Shown: positions 1 through 12,770 of the stretch, piece after piece
How positions within the stretch are numbered: the stretch's first letter is position 1
How the letters are laid out: each line of letters starts with the position of its first letter
Virus record (IMG/VR): IMGVR_UViG_2925939204_000008
Strand: one strand, 5' to 3'
Length of the DNA: 20,678 nucleotides
Source of the DNA: a virus
Lineage: Duplodnaviria; Heunggongvirae; Uroviricota; Caudoviricetes
Notes under the pieces: model-generated
Seen by the model: only the letters and a program-made list of their open reading frames with translations
The model's database searches: none
Told to the model about the DNA's origin: nothing
Made by a program: the position numbers and the translations under genes

Positions 1-552
1 TTACCTGGTTGCCGGAAATTTTTTATATAGCGTCGATATCCCAACATCGTAAATTAATGCCACACGCTGTCGTGATTCACCTGCTGCAATCAACCTGCCT
101 GCCTGCGCCCACTGTTCATCAGTTAGCTTTGATCGACGCCCACCTATTCGCCCTTCTTCACGAGCCGCAGCCAATCCCGCCCTGGTACGTTCGACTATCA
201 GCTCCCTTTCCATTTCTGCAAGTGCGCCCATGACATGGAAGAAAAAGCGTCCCATTGGTGAAGACGTATCTATGCTGTCGGTCAGGCTGCGAAAGTTAAT
301 ACCCTTTTCCCGAAGCTCCTCCACCAAAACGACAAGATGCCGCATGCTGCGACCGAGTCGATCCAATTTCCAGACCACCAGCGTATCGCCTTCAGACAGA
401 GTCCTGAGTACTTTCTTCAAGCCCGGCCTGTCAGACGTTCTGCCGCTGATCTTATCCTCGAATATCAGTTCACATCCTGCGCACTCCAGCGCGTTTCGTT
501 GCAATGCAGTGTTCTGGTCATTTGTTGACACGCGTACATAGCCGATGAGCAT
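1..552 (-). CDS. pin: Serine recombinase, DNA invertase of the Pin/Gin/Hin/Cin family
   Basis: 183-aa ORF with stop at 1-3; resolvase-type N-terminus (MLIGYVRVSTNDQ with the nucleophilic Ser, LDRLGRS, GRFFFHVMGALAEMERELI) and C-terminal HTH; close to Pin/Gin by recall. Confidence 0.9.
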   Translation of the reverse strand: MLIGYVRVSTNDQNTALQRNALECAGCELIFEDKISGRTSDRPGLKKVLRTLSEGDTLVVWKLDRLGRSMRHLVVLVEELREKGINFRSLTDSIDTSSPMGRFFFHVMGALAEMERELIVERTRAGLAAAREEGRIGGRRSKLTDEQWAQAGRLIAAGESRQRVALIYDVGISTLYKKFPATR

Positions 553-606
553 GAGAAATAACCCTGTAAAAATCCGGGATCATGCCATCTGAGCCGAATA
601 ACTGCA

Positions 607-632
607 TTTTCTAAAAGGTTGGTTTGGGAGAA
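607..632. other. pix/gix-like 26-bp invertase crossover site (one half well conserved, other half degenerate)
   Basis: Minus-strand reading TTCTCCCAAACC AA CCTTTTAGAAAA resembles the gix/hix pattern TTCnnnnAAACC..GGTTT..GA.AA; sits 55 bp upstream of the pin start, where the pin-proximal site is expected. Confidence 0.4.
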
Positions 633-971
633 GCGGCTAAAAGGAATGTAGGGACAGGGGCGAATCAGATACCTGATATGGGTAGCTTCACGCTTTCTGT
701 TTCAGGTACTGGATATCAAAAATTACCATCAGGTTTTATTCTTCAGTGGGGCTCAATCGGCGCACCAGGCATTGCACAGGATGTAGTAACCCATTTCCCG
801 ATTGCATTTCCAAACAGATGTCTGCGTGTTTTGGTCTCACAAGACTACACACCAGATAGCGGGGCTGTTGGTTATATTGCCTGTGCAGGTTTTAGTCCCG
901 ACCCGGTTAAATTTATATCCAGAGCCAGTACTCCTGGCCTCGGCGCTTCATTTTTAGCGTTAGGCTGTTAA
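624..971 (+). CDS. Tail fibre C-terminal (variable-region) fragment; reading frame opens inside the crossover site and has no canonical ATG
   Basis: 115-aa ORF starting with TTG inside the pix-like site and reading away from pin, as expected for the alternative variable tail-fibre segment of an invertible G/P-type region; Gly/Ser/Thr-rich composition. Confidence 0.4.
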
Positions 972-1155
972 TTTAGCTATATGGAGTGAAAAATGAATTA
1001 CATATATTCCGCGACTACAAACTCTTTCTATCCGCTGGAGATGAAAGAGGATTACCCCAGCTCGCGGACATCCTTCCCGGTGGGTTCATCAAACTCCAGT
1101 ACGGAGAGTGTCTCACCATGAGCGATAATCGGTTTCTTTAACTCAAGCTCTTTCA

Positions 1156-1512
1156 TTACTGGTAATCCCCTTCTTCACCGTGGAACTCAAGATCAACCGT
1201 GCCTTCTTCGGCATTATGGTTCGCTTCTCCGTGCAGCCAGGCGGACGACAATACATAGACCTGACCGTTCGCCAGCTCGGCAGTGATGGTCATCTCATCA
1301 GACGAGGTGATTTTGCTCACCGGAAAATTCTTCGGCACCTTGAAGGTCCCTTTGACATAAGGCGCACGGTGAGTTTCCTTGCGGTCCACTGAACCGTCCA
1401 GGCCGATGATGTCATCATTGACCGTCCTGTTCATGGGCACCTCAATGCCGCCGGTCAGCGATAGCTGCTGACCGTCAATTTTGAAATAACAGGTTCCCCC
1501 GATACGGGCCAT
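1156..1512 (-). CDS. Putative contractile-tail tube protein (Mu gpM-like)
   Basis: 118-aa ORF immediately downstream of the sheath-like gene with start/stop overlap at 1512; size and position fit a tube protein; not searched. Confidence 0.5.
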   Translation of the reverse strand: MARIGGTCYFKIDGQQLSLTGGIEVPMNRTVNDDIIGLDGSVDRKETHRAPYVKGTFKVPKNFPVSKITSSDEMTITAELANGQVYVLSSAWLHGEANHNAEEGTVDLEFHGEEGDYQ

Positions 1513-2651
1513 TATGCAGACTCCTCTGAATACTGAAGACGGAACTGGTTAACCACGGCAAAAACACGCAACTGGTTAACATAGTCAGGCGGGAACAGCG
1601 TGTTCAGGCGGTTCGGATCGCTGGCATCACGCTCAACAACCAGGTACTGCTTAAACAGTTCGTAGTTTTCCACGATCCCCGCACACTCAAGCTGACGGTA
1701 GGTTGCCAGCAGTTCCCCTTTGATTACCGCCGGGGTGACAATCGCCTGACCGGGACCAAAGCGGGTACCGTCGCTGGCAAGCTTGTGACGCCCGTACTTA
1801 CTGGTAATGACGGATTTCAGTTTGCGCAGTACATACGCACTGGTATGCAGCGTCTCGCTGTCGAGGTAGCTGTTATCCGCAACCCCGTAAGCATTTTTCC
1901 TGTACGTGGTGACATCACGCTGAATGCGCACCAGCGTGTTAACGGAGGCCGTGTCGTTGAACGGCAGACCGATATAATCAAACGGCTCATCCGCCATTGC
2001 AGCCACCGCGCCGGTGAGAACCGGAGCGCCCGTTCCGGCGGTCCCCGTCGCCACGGCAATCTGTACGCCCGCTGGCAGCACTTCACCCCCACCGAAGCCG
2101 TAGTAATTGAGGCTGACAGGAATTTCATTCCCGCAAAGCCCCTTATGACGCGCGGTCAGCGTGACAACACCAGCCGAAGATGAAGCTGTAAACGGCAGAG
2201 TCGGAACGGCATTGATGGCATCCTGGATACTGCTGGCAATCGTCGTGACGTTATCGCCGTTGGTCACCGGAGCCTGCACACGGGTACGTCCCACATAGAC
2301 ATTCACCGTGCCGCTTTCGGTTGCTTCCCCGGTCACCGTCAGCGTAACCGTTGCCGCCGCGCCTGTGGCTTCCGGAACGGCAATCACATACAGCTCGCCA
2401 AACGGGTCAGTCTGGCGATAAGCCTCGACCATACGCGCCAGCTGACTTCCCGCACCACAAATCTGGCGTGCATAGTCTGCCGACGGCATCAGCACCAGGC
2501 TGTTGGCAACAATCTCTGCACCGTTATTGGCATGACCAATCAGCAGCGATGCTCCGCTGTCCTGTGCAGTATTCGCCGCCGAGTTATCCATTTCCGCATA
2601 AAACAGCGGAACCAGCGTATTCGACGGAATGGTGTTAAAGCTTATCGTCAT
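1512..2651 (-). CDS. Putative contractile-tail sheath protein (Mu gpL-like)
   Basis: 379-aa ORF, Gly/Thr/Val-rich beta-type composition, tightly coupled to the 118-aa downstream gene; sheath-tube pairing inferred from order and size. Confidence 0.55.
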   Translation of the reverse strand: MTISFNTIPSNTLVPLFYAEMDNSAANTAQDSGASLLIGHANNGAEIVANSLVLMPSADYARQICGAGSQLARMVEAYRQTDPFGELYVIAVPEATGAAATVTLTVTGEATESGTVNVYVGRTRVQAPVTNGDNVTTIASSIQDAINAVPTLPFTASSSAGVVTLTARHKGLCGNEIPVSLNYYGFGGGEVLPAGVQIAVATGTAGTGAPVLTGAVAAMADEPFDYIGLPFNDTASVNTLVRIQRDVTTYRKNAYGVADNSYLDSETLHTSAYVLRKLKSVITSKYGRHKLASDGTRFGPGQAIVTPAVIKGELLATYRQLECAGIVENYELFKQYLVVERDASDPNRLNTLFPPDYVNQLRVFAVVNQFRLQYSEESA

Positions 2652-2805
2652 CGGTGTTCACCTTTTTATTCACGCGCCGGATATCACCCGCGGCTTCACG
2701 GCGCAGCCAGTAGTTGTTCTCGTCAACATTTCGCCCTTCGGCGGGCAAAAGGTCGCCGCGGGCAGGGTCAGGCACTGACCGCCCTTTAACAGGTTTCACA
2801 AACAT
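2635..2805 (-). CDS. Small conserved phage protein (56 aa) between terminase and sheath genes
   Basis: Not in the ORF track; ATG at 2805 lies 8 nt after the terminase stop and the ORF overlaps the sheath start by 17 nt; translation MFVKPVKGRSVPDPARGDLLPAEGRNVDENNYWLRREAAGDIRRVNKKVNTDDDKL. Confidence 0.4.
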   Translation of the reverse strand: MFVKPVKGRSVPDPARGDLLPAEGRNVDENNYWLRREAAGDIRRVNKKVNTDDDKL

Positions 2806-2813
2806 GATGATTC

Positions 2814-3944
2814 TCAGGAAGGAAGGGTTATTTCGGTGTGATGTTCGATATCGCCGTCAGGCCCGTTACCGGGATCGAGATAATCAACATCAATCGCCAG
2901 CGTTCGCAGTTCATCTAGACTGTTCAGGTCATCCTGCTGGCGGGTATCGTCTTCAGTCAGCTCGCTGATGACCGAAAAATCGAACTGATAAATCAGCTCA
3001 TGACGATTCAGATCCAGCAGCGTACCGCCGTCATAGGTAATCGGGTTACCGCACGCTTCCGGGTTAGCTTTTTCCAGCACCTGTGGGTCGGTCCAGTCGT
3101 CACCTTCGTCAACGGTATAGATGATCCCGAACAGTTCATCGTTGGGTACCGACCCGTTGAGCATCTCGATAACTTCCCGCCGCTTGTCGTAGCACGGCCC
3201 CTCAATGTTGTACCCGGCAGTAGTAATGGCCCACATCAGTGGCTGACGTCGCGCCCCCATCCCGGTAAGCATCGTGGTGTAAAGCGCGTCGGTGGCGTGC
3301 TCGTGATATTCATCCACCACCGCACAGTGGGGTGATGATCCATCACCGGGGTTACCGATCAGCGGTTCAAACCGCGCGCCATCCTCCGGACGGTTCATGT
3401 TTGAGGCGTTAACCTCAATCCCGAACGCTTCCGTCAGCATGGGTGTGCGTTTACACATCAGTCGCGCCGGGCGAAAGACTTCCCACGCCTGTTTCTCTGT
3501 CGTGGCACCGGAATACACTTCCGCGCCAAACTCGTTATCACAGGCAAAACAATACAGGGCGACACCGGCAGAGATTGCCGATTTGCCGTTCTTACGGGGA
3601 ATTTCGGTATACACCTCCCGGAAGCGGCGCAGCCGGATACCTTTATTGACCCAGCCAAACGCACAGCAGATCACAAAGAGCTGCCACGGCTCCAGCGTGA
3701 TGGGCATCCTCTTGAATGCCCACTCCCCCTTGGTGTGCGGCAACAGTTGAATAAATTTGGCGGCCCGTTCAGCCAGGTCCTTGTCGAAGCGGTAACGAAA
3801 CGACTTACTTTTTTCCGCCATCAGGTCATCAAGATGGCGCTGGCAGGCCTGAATCACAAACTGGCAGGCCACAATCTTTCCGCGCACGACATCACGGGCA
3901 TACTGATTGGCAGCATTTACGTTGGGGTAAGATTTCCGGCTCAT
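2814..3944 (-). CDS. Phage terminase large subunit, ATPase domain only (truncated; nuclease domain missing)
   Basis: Walker A-like PRKNGKS, Walker B-like [14 protein letters not shown] motif; 376 aa is too short for a full TerL and the C-terminal ~70 aa is an acidic low-complexity tail. Confidence 0.7.
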
Positions 3945-4406
3945 GACTCGATGATTTTCAGAAACGGGTTAGTGGCTTTCTTCTGCCCCGCCAGGCCAAT
4001 CAGACGCTGGCGGCTGCTGGGGTCGAGTCCGAGCATTGCCCCCGTGCTGCTCATCTCGGACTCCTGTTCTTTTTTGGCGGTCAGCTCCGGATTTTTGACC
4101 CTGCCGCCCATTGCACCGGTGATGGTGTTGCCCTGTATCAGGAAGAGACACAAAGACGCCATTTGCAGACTGCGCCACAGCGTCAGCAATGAAGTGAGTT
4201 CCACCTGCACGTTGCAAAATCATTGCCCATCCCAGCGGGAAAATCTGATCGCCATCGGCACGAAGGCGGTTAAATAATGCGTTCTCTGTTACATCCAGCC
4301 AGTCAGCAGCTTCAGCGTACCCCCCCGGCAACGCTGCGATAGTTTTTCTGACAGCTTTCACGTACCACTCAGGCTGTTTTTCTACTTTCCAGTGATGCTT
4401 ACCCAC
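3941..4406 (-). pseudogene. Frameshifted small DNA-binding gene upstream of terminase large subunit (terminase small subunit-like or CII-like)
   Basis: N-terminal part in ORF 3969..4406 (HTH-like GGYAEAADWLDVTENALFNRL) turns to low-complexity read-through; C-terminal part in the +1 frame (3941..4210) ends in an ATGA overlap with the terminase start; frames swap around 4110-4170. Confidence 0.45.
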
Positions 4407-4659
4407 GGTTCACCTCCTGTTCCTGTGGTTTAAACCCATTCTGGTTTTGGCTAGATTGAAAACGTGCCGGATAAAGAATCTGCATTTCGCTGACTTCACC
4501 CTTAAAAAAATTGGCTAAACGTTCTGCAAGCTCGATAGATGGAATCTGCTCCAGCCTCTCAATACGACTCAACGTCGCTGGATTGACTTGAACACCCGCA
4601 GCAACATGCTGCAAAGTGAAACCATGCGCCTTACGCACATTTCGTAATGGTGATTGCAT
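4399..4659 (-). CDS. Cro-like HTH (XRE family) DNA-binding protein
   Basis: 86-aa ORF with HTH (FTLQHVAAGVQVNPATLSRIE), divergent from the CI-like repressor across a 97-bp operator-containing intergenic region. Confidence 0.7.
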   Translation of the reverse strand: MQSPLRNVRKAHGFTLQHVAAGVQVNPATLSRIERLEQIPSIELAERLANFFKGEVSEMQILYPARFQSSQNQNGFKPQEQEVNRG

Positions 4660-4673
4660 ACGCCCTCCAAATA

Positions 4674-4736
4674 TTGCGCGTTATGCATGTTATTTCACGC
4701 AATTATTTTGCGCAAGTTGATTTGCTTATCACGCAA
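4674..4736. promoter_or_regulatory. Operator region of the cI-like/cro-like divergent pair (TTGCG..CGCAA palindromes)
   Basis: TTGCGCG-N15-CACGCAA (4674-4702), perfect palindrome TTGCGCAA (4708-4715), TTTGC-N7-CGCAA (4722-4736), all between the two divergent start codons. Confidence 0.45.
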
Positions 4737-4756
4737 TAAAGAAATGTAATAAACGC

Positions 4757-5449
4757 ATGAACATAGGAAACCGAGTCAGACAACTTCGCCAAGCGAAGAA
4801 CATGAAAATCGCCGATCTCGCTGAAGCGATAGGAGTAGATGCGGCGAACATCTCGCGCTTAGAAACGGGTAAGCAAAAACAATTTACCGAACAAACACTG
4901 AGTAATATTGCCAAGAGCTTAGGTGTTGATATTGCTGATCTCTTTACCTCTGCCCACAAAAGTAATACTGTATATAAAAACAGTAATAATGAGGATGTTG
5001 CGCAGGTGAAGGATGTGTTCCGTATTGAAATGCTGGATATCAGTGCCAGTGCGGGAAATGGCCTTATCCAGGGCGGTGATGTCATTGATGTGATTCATGC
5101 CATCGAATACAGAACTGATAATGCTGTATCAATGTTCGGCGGACGACCAGCCAATCACATCAAAGTTATCAACGTTCGTGGGGACAGTATGTGTCCAACC
5201 ATTGAGCCAGGAGATCTCATCTTCGTTGATGTCAGCATCAATCAGTTTGATGGTGATGGTATATATGTCTTTGGTTTTGATGACAAAATATACGTTAAAA
5301 GACTTCAAATGATTCCTGACAAACTGCTGGTGATTTCTGATAACCAGATTTACCGTGAATGGGGAATTACTAGCGAAAACGAACACCGATTCATGGTCTT
5401 TGGAAAGGTCTTAATCAGTCAGTCGCAAACCCTTAAGAGACATAATTAA
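4757..5449 (+). CDS. CI-like phage repressor, N-terminal HTH plus C-terminal LexA-like S24 peptidase domain
   Basis: 230 aa; N-terminal HTH (MKIADLAEAIGVDAANISRLETG); C-terminal S24 signature GDSM (Ser) and downstream KRL (Lys). Confidence 0.85.
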   Translation: MNIGNRVRQLRQAKNMKIADLAEAIGVDAANISRLETGKQKQFTEQTLSNIAKSLGVDIADLFTSAHKSNTVYKNSNNEDVAQVKDVFRIEMLDISASAGNGLIQGGDVIDVIHAIEYRTDNAVSMFGGRPANHIKVINVRGDSMCPTIEPGDLIFVDVSINQFDGDGIYVFGFDDKIYVKRLQMIPDKLLVISDNQIYREWGITSENEHRFMVFGKVLISQSQTLKRHN

Positions 5450-5468
5450 CCTCAATATCCCATCCATC

Positions 5469-5491
5469 GGCCACCGAAAGGTGGCTTTTTA
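5469..5491 (+). terminator. Rho-independent terminator after the repressor gene
   Basis: GC stem GCCACC / GGTGGC with GAAA loop followed by TTTTTA. Confidence 0.7.
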
Positions 5492-5502
5492 TTACCTATA
5501 AA

Positions 5503-5540
5503 TTTGCATATATAGCAAATATAACTTGCATATCTCGCAA
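5503..5540. promoter_or_regulatory. Two operator-like palindromes (TTTGC-N7-GCAAA and TTGC-N7-GCAA) upstream of the xis-int operon
   Basis: TTTGCATATATAGCAAA (5503-5519) and TTGCATATCTCGCAA (5526-5540) share the TTGC/GCAA half-sites seen in the cI-cro intergenic region. Confidence 0.4.
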
Positions 5541-5845
5541 TTTAATTTTATCTTTTGTTCCAGACCAACTACAGGATTACAACAAAATCTGGTTGCAACA
5601 CGGTGCATGTGTCGTAAGCAGTCAGTAAATGTCAAAAACGAACAGGCAGGACGCCCACGAAGTAGCCGCCTGGGGCATATGAAGTCCAGGATGATTCGTT
5701 AGCAACAAAAAAGCGCCCTACAGGACGCTTAGCTCTTTAACAATCTGGTCCCCATCAACAAGTAACTGATAACTTGAGGAGACCTTGAAAACGTCAATAT
5801 CACTCACTGGGCAGTAATGCCAAAAGCACCGGAGGCTGGAGCATA

Positions 5846-6151
5846 ATGACCACTTTTACCGACAAAGAACTGATTAAAGAAATTAAAGAGCGTATCAGCA
5901 GCCTTGACGTGCGAGACGATATTGAGCGCCGTGCTTATGAAATCGCACTCCTATCTCTGGAAGTAGAACCAGATGAACGCGAAGCTTATGAATTATTCAT
6001 GGAAAAGCGTTTCGGTGACTTAGTAGATCGTCGGAGAGCAAAAAACGGCGATAACGAATACATGGCATGGGATATGACTCTCGGTTGGATCGTCTGGCAG
6101 CAACGAGCAGGTATCCATTTTTCAACAATGTCACAACAAGAGGTGAAATAA
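5846..6151 (+). CDS. Hypothetical protein (101 aa), translationally coupled to xis
   Basis: ORF with acidic helical composition; stop TAA overlaps the xis ATG (TAATG at 6149-6153). Confidence 0.5.
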   Translation: MTTFTDKELIKEIKERISSLDVRDDIERRAYEIALLSLEVEPDEREAYELFMEKRFGDLVDRRRAKNGDNEYMAWDMTLGWIVWQQRAGIHFSTMSQQEVK

Positions 6152-6501
6152 TGGAGCCATACAGCCTCACACTCGATGAGGCCTGTCATTTTCTCAAGAT
6201 ATCCAGACCGACTGCCATTAACTGGATACGCACAGGGCGTCTTCAGGCAACACGCAAAGATCCCACTAAGAATAAATCTCCTTACCTCACAACACGACAA
6301 GCCTGCATTGCGGCTCTTCAGTCTCCGCTGCATACTGTCCAGGTGAGCGCGGGTGATGGCATAACAGAGGAAAGAAAATGTCACTCTTCCGCAGAGGTGA
6401 AATATGGTACGCCAGTTTCACATTGCCGAACGGTAAAAGATTTAAACAGTCTCTTGGAACAAAGGACAAAAGGCAGGCGACAGAACTCCATGACAAGCTA
6501 A
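6151..6501 (+). CDS. xis: Excisionase / AlpA-like DNA-binding protein
   Basis: [33 protein letters not shown] is a typical excisionase HTH; start chosen at the ATG at 6151; reading frame stays open to 6501, overlapping the int start by 124 nt, so the true end is uncertain. Confidence 0.65.
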
Positions 6502-7541
6502 AGGCTGAAGCATGGCGGGTCAGCAAACTTGGTGAAATACCTGATATAACGTTCGAGGAAGCGTGTGTCAGGTGGCTTGAAGAGAAAGCACATAAAAAAT
6601 CGCTGGACGATGACAAAAGCCGGATCGGATTCTGGCTTCAACATTTCGCAGGAATGCAACTAAGAGACATTACTGAATCAAAAATTTATTCAGCAATGCA
6701 GAAAATGACGAACCGGCGTCATGAGGAAAACTGGAAACTCAGGGCAGAAGCATGCAGAAAAAAAGGGAAACCTGTTCCAGAATACACGCCAAAACCAGCG
6801 TCCGTTGCAACGAAGGCTACGCATCTTTCATTTATAAAGGCCCTACTAAGAGCCGCAGAGCGTGAATGGAAAATGCTGGATAAGGCACCAATTATTAAAG
6901 TGCCTCAACCAAAGAATAAACGGATCCGCTGGCTGGAGCCCCATGAAGCACAAAGGCTGATTGATGAATGTCCGGAGCCATTAAAGTCTGTTGTTGAATT
7001 TGCACTGGCAACAGGCTTAAGACGCTCGAACATCATCAACCTTGAATGGCAACAAATAGATATGCAGCGCCGGGTGGCATGGATAAACCCGGAAGAGAGT
7101 AAATCAAACCGCGCAATTGGCGTTGCGCTGAATGATACTGCATGTCGCGTATTGAAAAAACAAATCGGGAATCATCACCGTTGGGTATTTGTGTACAAGG
7201 AAAGCTGTACCAAACCAGACGGAACGAAAGCGCCAACAGTAAGGAAGATGCGGTATGACGCAAACACAGCCTGGAAAGCGGCGCTGAGACGGGCTGGTAT
7301 TGATGATTTCAGATTTCACGACTTGAGACACACCTGGGCAAGTTGGCTGGTTCAAGCCGGAGTCCCGTTGTCAGTGTTACAGGAAATGGGAGGCTGGGAG
7401 TCTATCGAAATGGTTCGTCGATATGCTCACCTTGCACCTAATCACCTTACCGAACACGCACGGCAAATAGACTCGATCCTGAACCCATCGGTCCCAAATT
7501 TGTCCCAGTCAAAAAATAAGGAAGGTACTAATGATGTGTAA
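6378..7541 (+). CDS. int: Tyrosine recombinase, phage integrase (e14 IntE-like)
   Basis: 387 aa; N-terminus [14 protein letters not shown]; catalytic-type motifs HDLRHTWAS and VRRYAHL; good RBS GAGGAAAG. Confidence 0.9.
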
Positions 7542-7713
7542 CTTATTGATTTTAATGGTGCCGATAATAGGAGTGTAACACGCGATAAATCTTGTGTTCG
7601 GGTCTTCTTCTACGACCTTCGCAACTACCTGATTTAACGATTTTTACGCACACTGATAATCTGGCATTCATCATGCACATGATAAACGCCCCTAAACTTT
7701 AACGGGGTGGAAA

Positions 7714-8937
7714 ATGAAATACAAGCCGGATCAATACATCATATCTGATAGTTACGGAGTTTATTACGTCAGGATTTCAATTCCTGTATGGCTTCGTAAT
7801 GCATTTGGTGGAAGAAAAACTCTCGTCCGTAGTCTGAACACTTCCGATCTTCGTGTGGCTCGTAGGAAGCGTGATGTTATAGCCGACGAATTTCACCACA
7901 TCAGGCAAATTGCAGAGCCGCCAAAACCGGACAGCTTGCAGGACACGATCAGCTTTTTAAAGAGCGTGGCTAAGTACGCGAAAGCTGCCCCGAAAGCATC
8001 AGCTCCGATTATCTACCAATGCCCCTCTCTGAATAAGATGTTAGAGATTTACCTCACGCATAACGCTGATCGCCTGAAAATGGGAACATTAAGCAAGACC
8101 AGAAAAGCCGTTGAACTGTTCCTGAATTACCTGCGAAAGAAGGATGTTGAACTAAACGATATCAACCGTACCACCGTTACAGGCTGGCTTGATCATCTCC
8201 GAGAGACAAAGGCAGTCCAGACAGTGGCTAACTACCTATCAGCAATGGCAAACATTCTCGATCTTGCCTCTTCCCGATACCAGGACGCCCCACCGCTGGA
8301 AACTAACGTGTTCAGGGGGCATAAACTCAACACAGCGCAGAGCCGCCAGAGTTACGAGGCATTCACGGACGAAGAAATTACGAAGCTCATTAGCACGTTT
8401 AACAAGTTAGGAGAGGACGAATTAAGGGATGTGAGCGCCATCGCCGCTTATAGCGGAATGCGCATCAATGAAATAGCCAGTTTGAAATCTGACAATATCC
8501 GTGAAGTTGAGGGGGTGTTATGTTTCGAGGTGACGGAGGGTAAGACACGCAATGCGGCGCGGTTGGTTCCACTTCATAGTGCGATTAGAAAAATGGTTCT
8601 GGAACGCTGCCAGAAGCCGCACAACGGCTTTTTATTCTACCGTGCAAGTGTGACCAAGAGACAGGACGGCAAGCGCTCCTCATGGCACGTAAACCGCTTT
8701 GGACGGCTTAAACGCGATATTCTCCCAGGGCAGGAAAACAAGGTGTTTCACTCGTACCGCCATGCAGTGATCAGTAAGCTAAACGCCGCCGGAGTGGATG
8801 AATCTCGTATTGCCTTGCTCGCGGGTCACTCATTTGGAGAAACTGAGTCTTTCAAGACGTATTCGAAGAGTGTTCCTGAGCGTATTATGAAGGAGTTAGC
8901 GGGGTATATTGAATTAATAAATTACAACGTCCAGTAA
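7714..8937 (+). CDS. int: Tyrosine recombinase, integrase of genomic-island type
   Basis: 407 aa; C-terminal catalytic region with HSYRHAVIS and a downstream Tyr; long N-terminal arm/core-binding region. Confidence 0.85.
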   Translation: MKYKPDQYIISDSYGVYYVRISIPVWLRNAFGGRKTLVRSLNTSDLRVARRKRDVIADEFHHIRQIAEPPKPDSLQDTISFLKSVAKYAKAAPKASAPIIYQCPSLNKMLEIYLTHNADRLKMGTLSKTRKAVELFLNYLRKKDVELNDINRTTVTGWLDHLRETKAVQTVANYLSAMANILDLASSRYQDAPPLETNVFRGHKLNTAQSRQSYEAFTDEEITKLISTFNKLGEDELRDVSAIAAYSGMRINEIASLKSDNIREVEGVLCFEVTEGKTRNAARLVPLHSAIRKMVLERCQKPHNGFLFYRASVTKRQDGKRSSWHVNRFGRLKRDILPGQENKVFHSYRHAVISKLNAAGVDESRIALLAGHSFGETESFKTYSKSVPERIMKELAGYIELINYNVQ

Positions 8938-11619: not shown

Positions 11620-11738
11620 TTATCTTTCCTCATTCTGGAAATAAAAAAGGGCGGGAACACTGGGGAGATGTTCCCAACGTTCACACGCCCTATTCAATAG
11701 CCTGATTATTTCCAGCGGGTCAGGCTCCCGCTTGCTCA

Positions 11739-12770
11739 TTAAGCAGTGATGGTGATCTTCACCTGCATACCTAACGCATGGTTCACTGGTAATGCGCTGT
11801 TTTCGTGCATAACGTGGTAAGCATCGCCGCGCTCGCTCAGGTAGCCCCAAGAGTAGTATTCAGCAGGTGCAGCATCGATCAGCGCAAAGTTACCAGAGGC
11901 AGCGCCGTAGATGTTCTGATAAGCATTTGTGCCTTTACTGAACACCGGAACCGCCACCATGTCAGCATCATCTGGCATCTGTGCAAGGATCAGCGGATCT
12001 GTCACTTTAACAATGTCGATAGGCGCACCAGGTAGGCTAAACGTACTAACACCAGGGAGAAGCTCGTGACGCTGGTAGAATAGGTTACGGTCGTCATATG
12101 GCGCTACATACTGGAACGCCTTAGACATACTGTCAGAGAAGCGAATCTGGCTAAATGCAGCAGGTTTAGCGAATACGATCACTCGTTCAATCTGTCCAGC
12201 CAATCCACCTGCGGCAGCCTGAACTTTGTCTAAGATCGCATCAAAATCCTGTGCCGCTGTCGCTGTGCTCACGCTGGCTGTCATTGGCACCACACCGAAC
12301 AGTTCAGCATAAGAGATCAGTAGGTCATCAGTTGCAGGCGTATAAACTTCACCTTTGAACAGAGCACGGGCCAGGTAAGACTCACGGGTACGCAGATAAG
12401 CAATCTTATGTTTGCCAGTGTATTCGGTGTACAGGTCGGTAACGGTTTGCTCGTAGTCCGTTCCCTGCACTCTGCGGCCTTGTACGTCTACAGGTTTAAA
12501 CTCATCTTCCCTTGCAAACCAAGGAATCTCGATAAGGTATTCTTTGCCATTCTGACGCGCGGTAGTGTCGTGGTTTGATGAATAACGGCTCTGCGGGGTG
12601 TTAAACAGGCTGTAGTTATCATCCAGAAGCTGTGTCACCACCACTTTCGGATTCTGAACACCTACCCCGTCGAATAGGTCGAGGGCATTCATAAGATAGT
12701 TACGTTCCGGCAGAGCCTGGAAGATTGGCGCTAAATCGACCATCTCACGCCCAATTGCGATTTTACTCAT
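11739..12770 (-). CDS. Putative major capsid protein (lambda gpE-like size and position)
   Basis: 343 aa (lambda gpE is 341 aa), directly downstream of a ~119-aa gene as in the lambda D-E pair; assignment from size, order and composition, not from confirmed similarity. Confidence 0.45.
   Translation of the reverse strand: MSKIAIGREMVDLAPIFQALPERNYLMNALDLFDGVGVQNPKVVVTQLLDDNYSLFNTPQSRYSSNHDTTARQNGKEYLIEIPWFAREDEFKPVDVQGRRVQGTDYEQTVTDLYTEYTGKHKIAYLRTRESYLARALFKGEVYTPATDDLLISYAELFGVVPMTASVSTATAAQDFDAILDKVQAAAGGLAGQIERVIVFAKPAAFSQIRFSDSMSKAFQYVAPYDDRNLFYQRHELLPGVSTFSLPGAPIDIVKVTDPLILAQMPDDADMVAVPVFSKGTNAYQNIYGAASGNFALIDAAPAEYYSWGYLSERGDAYHVMHENSALPVNHALGMQVKITITA

Follow-up and report, generated by a model that had tools for sequence, protein, structure and literature searches.

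Introduction

In bacteriophage lambda, cI bound at the left operator OL represses PL, the promoter whose transcript supplies Xis and Int upon induction. The operators of lambda, P22 and 434 share a pattern of three adjacent full sites per cluster at distances of 20-24 bp. A left operator with only two repressor sites has reportedly been described by the Koudelka laboratory for phage 933W, which is said to use N antitermination. Unlike lambda, the phages SfII, SfV and SfIV lack an N protein (PMC3851460). In the N-less lambdoid phages HK022 and HK639, the DNA directly following PL encodes a structured RNA, putL (PMC9378689). For the SfII/mEp460/ST64B/phiNP group, literature searches returned no published operator assignment, and nothing specific was found on the operators of SfII, ST64B or e14.

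The DNA analyzed here, referred to as the window, comprises the complete 20,678 nucleotides of IMG/VR record IMGVR_UViG_2925939204_000008 and represents a decayed lambdoid prophage of E. coli that resembles SfII. E. coli chromosomes match it at 100% identity and Shigella phage SfII (NC_021857) at 99%. The order and strands of cro, cI, the terminator, the early-left genes, xis and int are likewise shared.

Organization of the immunity region

The cro-like gene (4399-4659, minus strand), taken from the list of open reading frames, encodes 86 aa with an HTH_3 domain (Pfam, 5e-10) and is annotated as cro in SfII. Across an intergenic region of 97 bp it diverges from the gene for a 230-aa CI-like repressor (4757-5449, plus strand; assigned as such by PHROG), in which an N-terminal HTH domain (HTH_3, 1e-11) is joined to a C-terminal S24 autopeptidase (Peptidase_S24, 6e-19) with an Ala99-Gly100 cleavage site and a Ser144/Lys181 dyad. 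The cleavage site and both dyad residues are invariant in the cI alignment of relatives, and the HTH helix is near-invariant. A predicted intrinsic terminator of the cI transcript (5469-5491, plus strand) is also annotated in SfII. Further along the plus strand lie yfdT (5846-6151; 101 aa, function unknown, PHROG 660), the excisionase gene xis (6151-6501; 116 aa, full-length match to PHROG 2907 excisionase at 1e-50, Pfam HTH_17) and, overlapping xis, the tyrosine integrase gene int (6378-7541; 387 aa, Pfam Phage_integrase 3e-48, 99% identity with the int region of SfII). A search for tRNA or tmRNA genes as attachment-site markers found none in the window.

As in lambda, operators are located between divergent cro and cI, and a cluster of the same sequence follows beyond the 3' end of cI, over a predicted early-left promoter leading to xis-int. 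The repressor likewise combines an HTH with a LexA-like self-cleaving domain, and its transcript is probably leaderless. Together with the small divergent HTH gene, the short intergenic region with repeated operators and an operator sequence that changes with repressor type, these features are those of a lambdoid immunity module. Judged from sequence, positions 5504-5540 are thus very probably the canonical two-site OL over PL of an SfII-type lambdoid immunity module, which heads the early-left operon to xis-int.

Several properties set the locus apart from lambda. The lambda sites measure 17 bp, whereas those of the window are 15 bp in length and read TTGC-N7-GCA(A/T); two full sites are present per cluster instead of three; and the distance between OL and OR is ~800 bp compared with 2.3 kb, which is due to the lack of rex genes. 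Moreover, the strongest OR site covers the -35 element of the inferred PRM, unlike in lambda. With phage 933W, the window has the two-site OL in common, while the repressor specificities are unrelated.

Candidate operator sites and their conservation

The operator motif, a 15-bp palindrome of the form TTGC-N7-GCAA, occurs three times without mismatch in the window (at 4722, 5504 and 5526), compared with 0.69 occurrences in shuffled sequences, and all three copies fall within the two regulatory regions. A conserved copy with one mismatch is found at 4674. Each of these four sites is located either between cro and cI or directly past the cI terminator. Allowing one mismatch throughout the window gives 14 matches against a background of 13.9, and the signal therefore resides in the clustering and the exact arms.

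Within OR, the operator nearest cro, TTGCGCGTTATGCAT (4674-4688), carries the arm GCAT, which is conserved in all relatives; its arms are invariant in the alignment, it scores 17.2 bits with a position weight matrix (PWM) and it spans the edge of the -10 element and the +1 of the inferred PR. The operator nearest cI, TTGCTTATCACGCAA (4722-4736), matches the motif perfectly, combines invariant arms with a variable spacer (18.8 bits) and extends over -35 to -21 of the putative PRM. Between them lies a conserved central element, TTGCGCAAGTTGATT (4708-4722), which is a half-site only and contains the 8-bp palindrome TTGCGCAA at 4708-4715. Its PWM score is low, and none of the 10 lineages departs from its segment TGCGCAAG. 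It overlaps the -35 element of PR and has its center near -42 relative to the inferred PRM; possibly, it is a weak, OR2-like site. Of the three palindromes that a first-pass annotation of this DNA had counted between cI and cro, two are hence full 15-bp sites, while the third is this conserved half-site or mini-palindrome.

The two further palindromes noticed by the same annotation at 5503-5540 are indeed perfect 15-bp sites. The distal OL site, TTGCATATATAGCAA (5504-5518), has invariant arms in the alignment of relatives and differs from SfII by one spacer substitution; all 24 SfII-type loci possess it, at a distance of 22-23 bp upstream from the proximal site except for one locus with 33 bp. 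The latter, TTGCATATCTCGCAA (5526-5540), scores 18.5 bits and covers -35 to -21 of PL. A third full operator was sought in OR as well as upstream and downstream of both OL sites, and only the half-site at 4708-4722 emerged. With the OL sites 22 bp apart and the full OR sites separated by 48 bp with the half-site in between, the window does not display the lambda/P22/434 pattern described above.

A weight matrix trained solely on sites from other phages and then run on the window placed the positions 4722, 5526, 4674 and 5504 in the first four ranks (18.8 to 14.9 bits; next hit 10.7), and four such hits were obtained in 0/500 shuffles, the test being partly dependent since the training sites are orthologues of those in the window. 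Phage DNA without this type of repressor (1.1 Mb) contains the perfect motif at 0.24 per 10 kb, and the same rate of 0.24 per 10 kb applies to bins below 38% GC. The motif is therefore not one of AT-rich background, the circumstance that had been named as fatal to a regulatory role.

Comparison with mEp460, Stx2a_WGPS2, ST64B, Klebsiella phage P7641 and Flotzy (90-70% identity) revealed a footprint of invariant arms and varying 7-nt spacers, and the operator sites occupy the same positions in the immunity regions of SfII and its relatives mEp460, ST64B and phiNP. Co-occurrence with the repressor was analyzed in about 100 phage loci that have a leader RNA element in common (element B, see below). 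All 24 loci with an SfII-type HTH, representing 10 distinct N-termini, carry at least two OL sites and at least one OR site, compared with 0/79 loci with any motif site among those with 46 other repressor N-termini. In 21 of the 24 SfII-type loci, the OR sites are fixed at -83 and -35 from the cI ATG, and the operator nearest cro by itself is found at -83 in 23/24. The heteroimmune SfIV, which has a different cI, instead harbors sites of the type TGTAC-N7-GTACA at OR and half-matching TGTAC sites at OL. The predicted operator sequence is thus characteristic of the immunity type and varies with the repressor. As both cI and cro travel with the motif, cI is not separable from Cro as the binding protein. 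The original proposal of the same operators at the switch and at 5504-5540 accordingly holds insofar as the sites are of one type, follow the repressor type and lie over a conserved predicted promoter.

Predicted promoters

The inferred PL (5526-5554, plus strand) consists of the -35 hexamer TTGCAT (5526-5531), a 17-nt spacer and the -10 hexamer TATCTT (5549-5554), with +1 near 5561. It agrees with the consensus at 7/12 positions, and its -35 (TTGCnn), 17-nt spacer and TATCTT are conserved in 14/15 distinct SfII-type OL contexts. At its place and in the same orientation, SfIV, AH07, YeP1 and ZF40 exhibit TTGACA, a spacer of 16 or 17 nt and CATAAT or TACATT. The inferred PR for cro (4687-4715, minus strand) combines a -35 of TTGCGC (reverse complement of 4710-4715) with a -10 of TAACAT (reverse complement of 4687-4692) over 17 nt, and in relatives the hexamers are conserved as TTGCGC and TAACAT or TAATAT. 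By analogy with lambda PRM, a putative PRM (4722-4750, plus strand) can be assigned with TTGCTT (4722-4727), 17 nt and TGTAAT (4745-4750), the latter being invariant in the alignment of relatives. Its predicted +1 is the A of the cI ATG, which would result in a leaderless cI mRNA without Shine-Dalgarno sequence. The overlap of the strongest OR site with the inferred PRM -35 would imply negative autoregulation and not a lambda-style order of occupancy.

In a consensus promoter scan, PL, PR and PRM all stayed below threshold and none was called; the assignments therefore rest on conservation and not on consensus score. No consensus-like plus-strand promoter other than PL was detected in 5440-7750. 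A leftward promoter from the OL sites, antisense to cI, was also considered; its hexamers can be drawn by eye, its -10 is not kept in mEp460, and it was discarded.

Leader RNA downstream of PL

PL is followed by a leader with two parts. Segment A (5556-5632, plus strand) is a ~75-nt insertion specific to the SfII/mEp460 lineage; it is present in SfII and mEp460 and absent in ST64B, Flotzy and phiNP, in which element B begins 12-16 nt past the PL -10. Element B (5637-5700, plus strand) is a predicted 64-nt three-helix RNA composed of P1 (GCGAAC/GAUUCGC), P2 (GGC/GCC) and P3, a 5-bp hairpin. At least 120 contigs of IMG/VR and numerous phages contain it, with no fewer than 46 repressor types upstream, and it is similarly placed after PL in SfIV, AH07, YeP1 and ZF40. 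Covariation favors the fold, with 97% of cells paired versus 21-41% with slid partners and a score of 0.25 versus 0.07. Rfam returned no match in the whole window at gathering thresholds or in 4300-6200 at E values up to 1.

In most relatives of the window, element B holds the position of putL, and both stem from N-less lambdoid phages; the leader thus shares with put the location just downstream of PL in such a phage. The pair of stem-loops that characterizes put, in which CGAACGGC and GGAUGA blocks are conserved, was not recovered in it, and element B is predicted to form a three-way junction, as opposed to the two stem-loops of put in HK022/HK639. An identity with put was consequently rejected: a covariance model of HK022 putL, putR and HK639 putL, which recovers these three sequences at 72-100 bits, gave no hit in the leader or its relatives at E values up to 10, the reciprocal element B model found no match in HK022 or HK639, and BLAST of HK022/HK639 putL against the window and its relatives yielded chance 11-mers only. 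A weak hit of the put model (13 bits, E 0.5) on the minus strand, at 11734-11802, falls within an open reading frame and was taken as noise.

Terminators on the plus strand follow element B in just 3/100 contexts, and a short terminated sRNA is therefore unlikely, while minus-strand terminators follow it in 39/100. In the window, a strong intrinsic terminator hairpin is predicted on the minus strand at 5711-5730, which is 100% identical to the SfIV leader; it is what remains of a convergent moron gene. Lying downstream of PL and ahead of xis-int, the hairpin may be an obstacle to PL transcripts, with possible attenuation of transcription. Conceivably, element B constitutes a novel type of RNA in N-less lambdoid phages that acts in cis as an antiterminator or processivity element, is functionally analogous but unrelated to put, and allows passage of convergent moron terminators on the way to xis-int, an idea that we put forward tentatively and regard as rather doubtful. 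If true, element B could bear on early antitermination in lambdoid phages without N such as those of the ST64B, SfV and LLS type, a process that has been raised as an open question for phage LLS (PMC12315714).

A deletion between PL and yfdT

Both the cro-cI-OL/PL region and yfdT-xis-int are 99% identical between the window and SfII. What the window does not have is ~1.8 kb of the SfII early-left region, namely orf35, yfdR and most of orf33. At the junction, 5440-5700 corresponds to SfII 4303-4563 and the sequence from 5778 onward to SfII from 6357 onward; 5690-5782 is a short SfIV-type segment, unlike SfII. On the right side of the deletion, a 3' remnant of an orf33/orf29-like gene (5778-5846, plus strand) aligns by BLAST with SfII 6357-6425 and is annotated by PGAP as a pseudogene without N-terminus. 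A truncated ymfL and terminase fragments are further marks of decay in the prophage.

In intact SfII, PL is ~2.0 kb away from yfdT and the operon reads orf35, yfdR, orf33, yfdT, xis, int, with all genes downstream of PL through int co-oriented and tightly packed. This early-left gene order was confirmed in SfII, mEp460 and ST64B, and in intact relatives at least 2 kb of early-left genes separate OL/PL from yfdT-xis-int. In the window, merely 306 bp with nothing else intact extend from 5540 to the yfdT ATG at 5846. That the hypothetical-xis-int genes lie about 300 bp away, as the first-pass annotation correctly reported, is thus a product of the ~1.8-kb deletion relative to SfII. At least seven E. 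coli chromosomes share exactly this deleted PL-yfdT-xis-int arrangement.

Alternative explanations

The OL region has a GC content of just 23%, and one-mismatch matches across the window stay at background (14 vs 13.9), so that the palindromes at 5504-5540 might be viewed as chance features of AT-rich intergenic DNA without regulatory role. Yet perfect sites are restricted to the two regulatory regions, AT-rich phage DNA contains only 0.24 of them per 10 kb, the arms remain invariant while the spacers change in relatives at 70% identity, and the association with repressor type (24/24 vs 0/79) is left unexplained. Chance is thereby effectively refuted, and its probability is practically nil. 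It is also very unlikely that 5504-5540 evolved as a dedicated xis-int operator, i.e. a separate excision switch distinct from the early-left operon. The 306 bp between PL and yfdT-xis-int without another intact gene, as well as the recurrence of exactly this arrangement in at least seven E. coli chromosomes, would be in line with such a switch; however, the proximity coincides with a deletion junction marked by the truncated gene stub at 5778-5846, intact relatives retain at least 2 kb of early-left genes in this interval, and the remainder of the prophage is decayed as well.

Alternatively, the downstream sites could be auxiliary operators that loop to OR over ~800 bp, in order to strengthen repression of PR or adjust PRM, or that serve mainly Cro, with xis-int driven by another promoter. 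Looping between OL and OR is well established in lambda, the motif is accompanied by cro as regularly as by cI, PL fits the consensus poorly and was not called by the scan, and some phages such as KplE1 with its intS control int separately. Against this stand the exact coincidence of the proximal site with a -35/17/-10 arrangement conserved in 14/15 contexts, the consensus promoter at the same position and in the same direction in heteroimmune relatives, the co-oriented and tightly packed SfII genes through int, and the lack of a detectable alternative plus-strand promoter before int. Looping would in any case be compatible with repression of PL. We consider a purely auxiliary function improbable.

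Proposed mechanism and implications

For the favored two-site OL over PL, the following scenario can be envisaged, in which binding by the proteins, the activity of the promoters, the reach of the transcripts and induction by SOS are what we infer from sequence. The module encodes a LexA-like, presumably SOS-cleavable cI and, very probably, Cro, both of which are expected to recognize the 15-bp TTGC-N7-GCA(A/T) sites. These would form OR, with two full sites and a half-site between cro and cI over the divergent PR and PRM, and OL, with 5504-5518 and 5526-5540 directly past the cI terminator. With -35 to -21 of PL lying within the proximal OL site, bound repressor would exclude RNA polymerase. 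In the lysogen, the whole early-left operon including xis and int as its last genes would hence be silent, until SOS-induced self-cleavage of cI allows PL to fire and excision functions to be made. The suggestion of the first-pass annotation that CI controls the excision genes is supported in part, in that xis and int lie downstream of PL, although by the canonical OL/PL of the early-left operon and not by a special excision operator. Repressor control of excision thus appears to follow the textbook lambda OL/PL logic, brought unusually close to xis-int by deletion.

Taken together, a candidate operator, TTGC-N7-GCA(A/T), as well as PL, PR and PRM can now be assigned to an immunity group that is common in prophages of E. 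coli, Shigella, Salmonella, Klebsiella and Citrobacter and includes some Stx2 phages (Stx2a_WGPS2, Stx2a_1447 and phiSTEC1575-Stx2k). With this assignment, immunity and superinfection groups as well as induction behavior become easier to predict. Furthermore, a decayed prophage can retain an intact chain from the repressor via PL to xis-int, and such a remnant may still excise upon SOS induction.

Layout of the prophage remnant

The element is a remnant of an SfII/CPS-53-like lambdoid prophage, as is evident from the decay to the left of cro (window 1-4400), where the cII-like gene ymfL is truncated and fused to fragments of the small and large terminase genes. Also present in this part are a small number of myovirus tail genes (sheath and tube), fragments of tail fibres and a gene for a recombinase/invertase, while cI, cro, xis and int are intact. 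Window 3900-7600 is 100% identical to several E. coli chromosomes, e.g. that of strain AR_0128, and 99% identical to Shigella phage SfII, except for one block that is absent from the window. According to the PGAP and SfII annotations and our own domain scans, a cro-like helix-turn-helix (HTH) gene (4399-4659, minus strand) is separated by an annotated intergenic region of 97 bp (between 4659 and 4757) from the gene for a cI-like repressor with HTH and S24 peptidase domains (4757-5449, plus strand). An intrinsic terminator (5469-5486) and an untranslated stretch follow, before the annotated gene yfdT (5846-6151) and the genes for excisionase (6151-6501) and integrase (6378-7541), both of which are supported by annotation and domain scans. 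A second, unrelated tyrosine integrase (7714-8937, plus strand; 407 aa with DUF6538 and SAM-like domains) begins 170 bp past the prophage int, which suggests that another mobile element has inserted in tandem, using the same attachment site. A tRNA gene was not detected anywhere in the window.

A shared candidate operator motif at the switch and downstream of cI

The palindromes with common half-sites that the first-pass annotation had described lie where it placed them and share the 15-bp form TTGC-N7-GCAA. Within the 20,678 bp, the perfect form is confined to three copies (at 4722, 5504 and 5526), where shuffled sequences yield 0.69, and a further copy at 4674 carries a single mismatch, its arm reading GCAT. 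Window-wide, matches with one mismatch are at background level (14 vs 13.9), and hence it is the exact arms and the clustering that carry the signal. The proposed motif scan, performed with a weight matrix trained exclusively on sites of other phages, placed 4722, 5526, 4674 and 5504 ahead of all other positions in the window (18.8 to 14.9 bits; next 10.7 bits), and four such matches appeared in 0 of 500 shuffles. In 1.1 Mb of phage DNA without an SfII-type repressor, the perfect motif was found at 0.24 per 10 kb, with the same rate in bins below 38% GC. This rate, the shuffles and the matrix ranking together argue against background occurrence in AT-rich DNA, and the sites are non-random. Of the three palindromes initially reported between cro and cI, those at 4674 and 4722 stand, but the third, the 8-bp TTGCGCAA at 4708-4715, differs in kind: it belongs to the conserved element TTGCGCAAGTTG(A/C)TT and represents a half-site only. 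An operator-like sequence, ATGCGCCTTACGCAC, is located inside cro (4624-4638, 21-35 nt into the coding sequence; 10.6 bits with the weight matrix) and was picked up as a hairpin as well. Its resemblance to the sites is probably due to chance, although it may act as a weak additional operator site.

The motif travels with the repressor type

Homologous regions were compared in six phages, i.e. mEp460, phiSTEC1575-Stx2k and Stx2a_WGPS2 (~90% identity), ST64B (74%), as well as Klebsiella phage P7641 and Escherichia phage Flotzy (~70%). Alignment of both operator regions shows unchanged TTGC and GCA(A/T) arms, while the 7-nt spacers and flanks vary. Among the same phages, the repressor HTH (residues ~17-40) is almost unchanged, and the Ala99-Gly100 cleavage site, Ser144 and Lys181 are likewise nearly invariant. 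A natural module-swap test was feasible because a structured leader RNA at 5637-5700 (element B) is common to phages with many different immunities and could be used to recover their loci. All 24 loci with an SfII-type HTH repressor (10 distinct N-termini) carry at least two sites in the region past cI and at least one between cro and cI; two are present there in 23 of the 24, and in 21 these sites lie at -83 and -35 relative to the cI ATG. The motif is absent from both regions in all 79 loci with 46 other repressor N-termini. Heteroimmune SfIV has the same leader and a different cI, and there OR, the cro-cI operator region, carries TGTAC-N7-GTACA-type palindromes, and OL, the region just past the cI terminator, contains half-matching TGTAC sites. 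Given this distribution (24/24 vs 0/79) and the different sites in SfIV, the motif travels with the cI/cro pair, and either cI or Cro may be the protein that uses a given site.

Predicted promoters under the operators

At the switch, the cro promoter PR probably corresponds to TTGCGC-17-TAACAT on the minus strand (4715 to 4687), so placed that the 4674-4688 operator would overlie the edge of its -10 and the start site. The cI promoter PRM is predicted as TTGCTT-17-TGTAAT (4722-4750). As transcription from it is predicted to start at the A of the cI ATG, the cI mRNA appears to be leaderless, as is the transcript from lambda PRM; the invariant TGTAAT -10 stops 6 nt short of this ATG (window 4745-4757), which no Shine-Dalgarno sequence precedes. 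The 4722-4736 operator would overlie the putative PRM -35, implying negative autoregulation, and the conserved half-site has its centre close to -42 of this promoter, the position of OR2 in lambda. All of these placements fit the conservation pattern.

The sites at 5504-5540 directly follow the cI terminator on the flank of cI that faces away from cro, upstream of co-oriented genes ending in xis and int; OL/PL are placed likewise in lambda. The proximal site starts with TTGCAT (5526-5531), followed 17 nt on by TATCTT (5549-5554), and 14 of the 15 distinct SfII-type contexts keep this -35/17/-10 arrangement. SfIV, AH07, YeP1 and ZF40 have consensus promoters (TTGACA, 16 or 17 nt, CATAAT or TACATT) in the equivalent position and with the same orientation, each flanked by the phage's own operators. 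Based on the position, the conserved arrangement and these heteroimmune equivalents, we assign a putative early-left promoter PL to 5526-5554, with a predicted +1 near 5561 and the proximal operator spanning -35 to -21. A consensus promoter scan did not call it because only 7 of 12 consensus positions match; nor did the same scan reveal any other plus-strand candidate as far as the end of int.

A deletion places the putative PL next to xis-int

The distance of ~300 bp between the left sites and the xis-int operon could point toward a dedicated excision operator, a reading that the relatives contradict. In SfII, where the region is intact, ~2.0 kb separate the proximal OL site from yfdT downstream, and orf35, yfdR and orf33 occupy this interval; its counterpart in mEp460, ST64B and the Stx2 phages contains yfdP, yfdQ and yfdR. 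Window 5440-5700 aligns with 4303-4563 of the SfII locus and the sequence from 5778 onward with 6357 onward. The segment 5690-5782 matches the SfIV leader at 100% identity, and of the gene that precedes yfdT, a 3' stub persists at 5778-5846. Thus, 5690-5846 is both mosaic and the junction of a deletion that, relative to SfII, removed ~1.8 kb of the early-left DNA (orf35, yfdR and the larger part of orf33), and the proximity of PL to xis-int is a deletion artefact. Element B sits where SfII-type sequence switches to SfIV-type and may be a recombination crossover point.

A structured RNA in the PL leader

Element B (~64 nt, plus strand; covariance-model match 5627-5706) lies just downstream of PL, in most lineages starting 12-16 nt past the -10. 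It is widespread among Enterobacterales phages: BLAST retrieved it from 49 phage records, covering Shigella, Escherichia, Salmonella, Citrobacter, Klebsiella, Yersinia, Pantoea and Pectobacterium phages and, with weak and partial matches, Providencia phages. At least 120 IMG/VR contigs also carry it, and the repressors upstream of it are of at least 46 different types. Those annotated relatives that were inspected have it ~75-115 bp downstream of a same-strand cI-like gene; in 103 of 129 occurrences, the 450 bp upstream contain the end of an ORF. The modelled fold is a three-way junction of three helices: in a set of 81 distinct sequences, standard pairs fill 97% of the pair cells (21-41% with slid partners), double changes occur at six pairs, and covariation scores 0.25 vs 0.07 in shuffles, being strong in P1 and P3. 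Rfam 15 contains no match.

As HK022 putL occupies the equivalent position (PMC9378689), membership in the put family was considered. A model of HK022 putL, putR and the annotated HK639 putL recovers these three and misses the window leader, and the element-B model matches neither HK022 nor HK639, which places element B outside this family. A copy on the PR side was seen in no locus, so that a putR equivalent is lacking; one IMG/VR contig carries two same-strand copies (977-1043 and 1645-1724), the second being weaker (44 bits). Between PL and element B, the SfII/mEp460 lineage alone has an insertion of ~75 nt (element A, 5556-5632, plus strand). The mEp460 version shares the 9-mer CAUGCGUCG with putL, yet BLAST and the put model give no support for homology. 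Element B is followed by a plus-strand terminator in 3 of 100 contexts and by minus-strand terminators of convergent genes in 39, including a strong intrinsic one at 5711-5730 in the window (AAGCGTCCTGTAGGGCGCTT, then a T-run), where no minus-strand gene remains to be terminated. As a hypothesis, element B may be a new PL-leader processivity or antitermination RNA of N-less lambdoid phages; it deserves to be recorded as a separate lead.

Proposed repressor control of early-left transcription

By analogy with lambda, cI dimers on OL and OR would block PL and PR, respectively, until RecA-stimulated self-cleavage at Ala-Gly relieves repression, and transcription from PL would then cross the early-left genes into xis and int. 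OL and OR are ~800 bp apart and might also be joined by a DNA loop. In the remnant, the repressor would gate yfdT-xis-int directly, which comes near the first-pass proposal that it controls the excision genes. That proposal was right in effect, but the sites form a textbook OL/PL that a deletion has made a neighbour of xis-int.

The OL/PL-cI-OR-cro architecture is that of lambda, from which the window differs in its 15-bp operator sequence, in having two rather than three full sites per cluster, and in lacking rex genes and an N protein. OL of phage 933W also comprises two sites. Homologues of N, cII and cIII are absent from SfII, SfV and SfIV (PMC3851460), and for related uncharacterised phages, whose repressor specificities are not known, it has been suggested that N-less members might use put-like RNA (PMC12315714). 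The literature searches revealed no published operator assignment for the SfII-type immunity group, and the arrangement belongs to a well-known kind.
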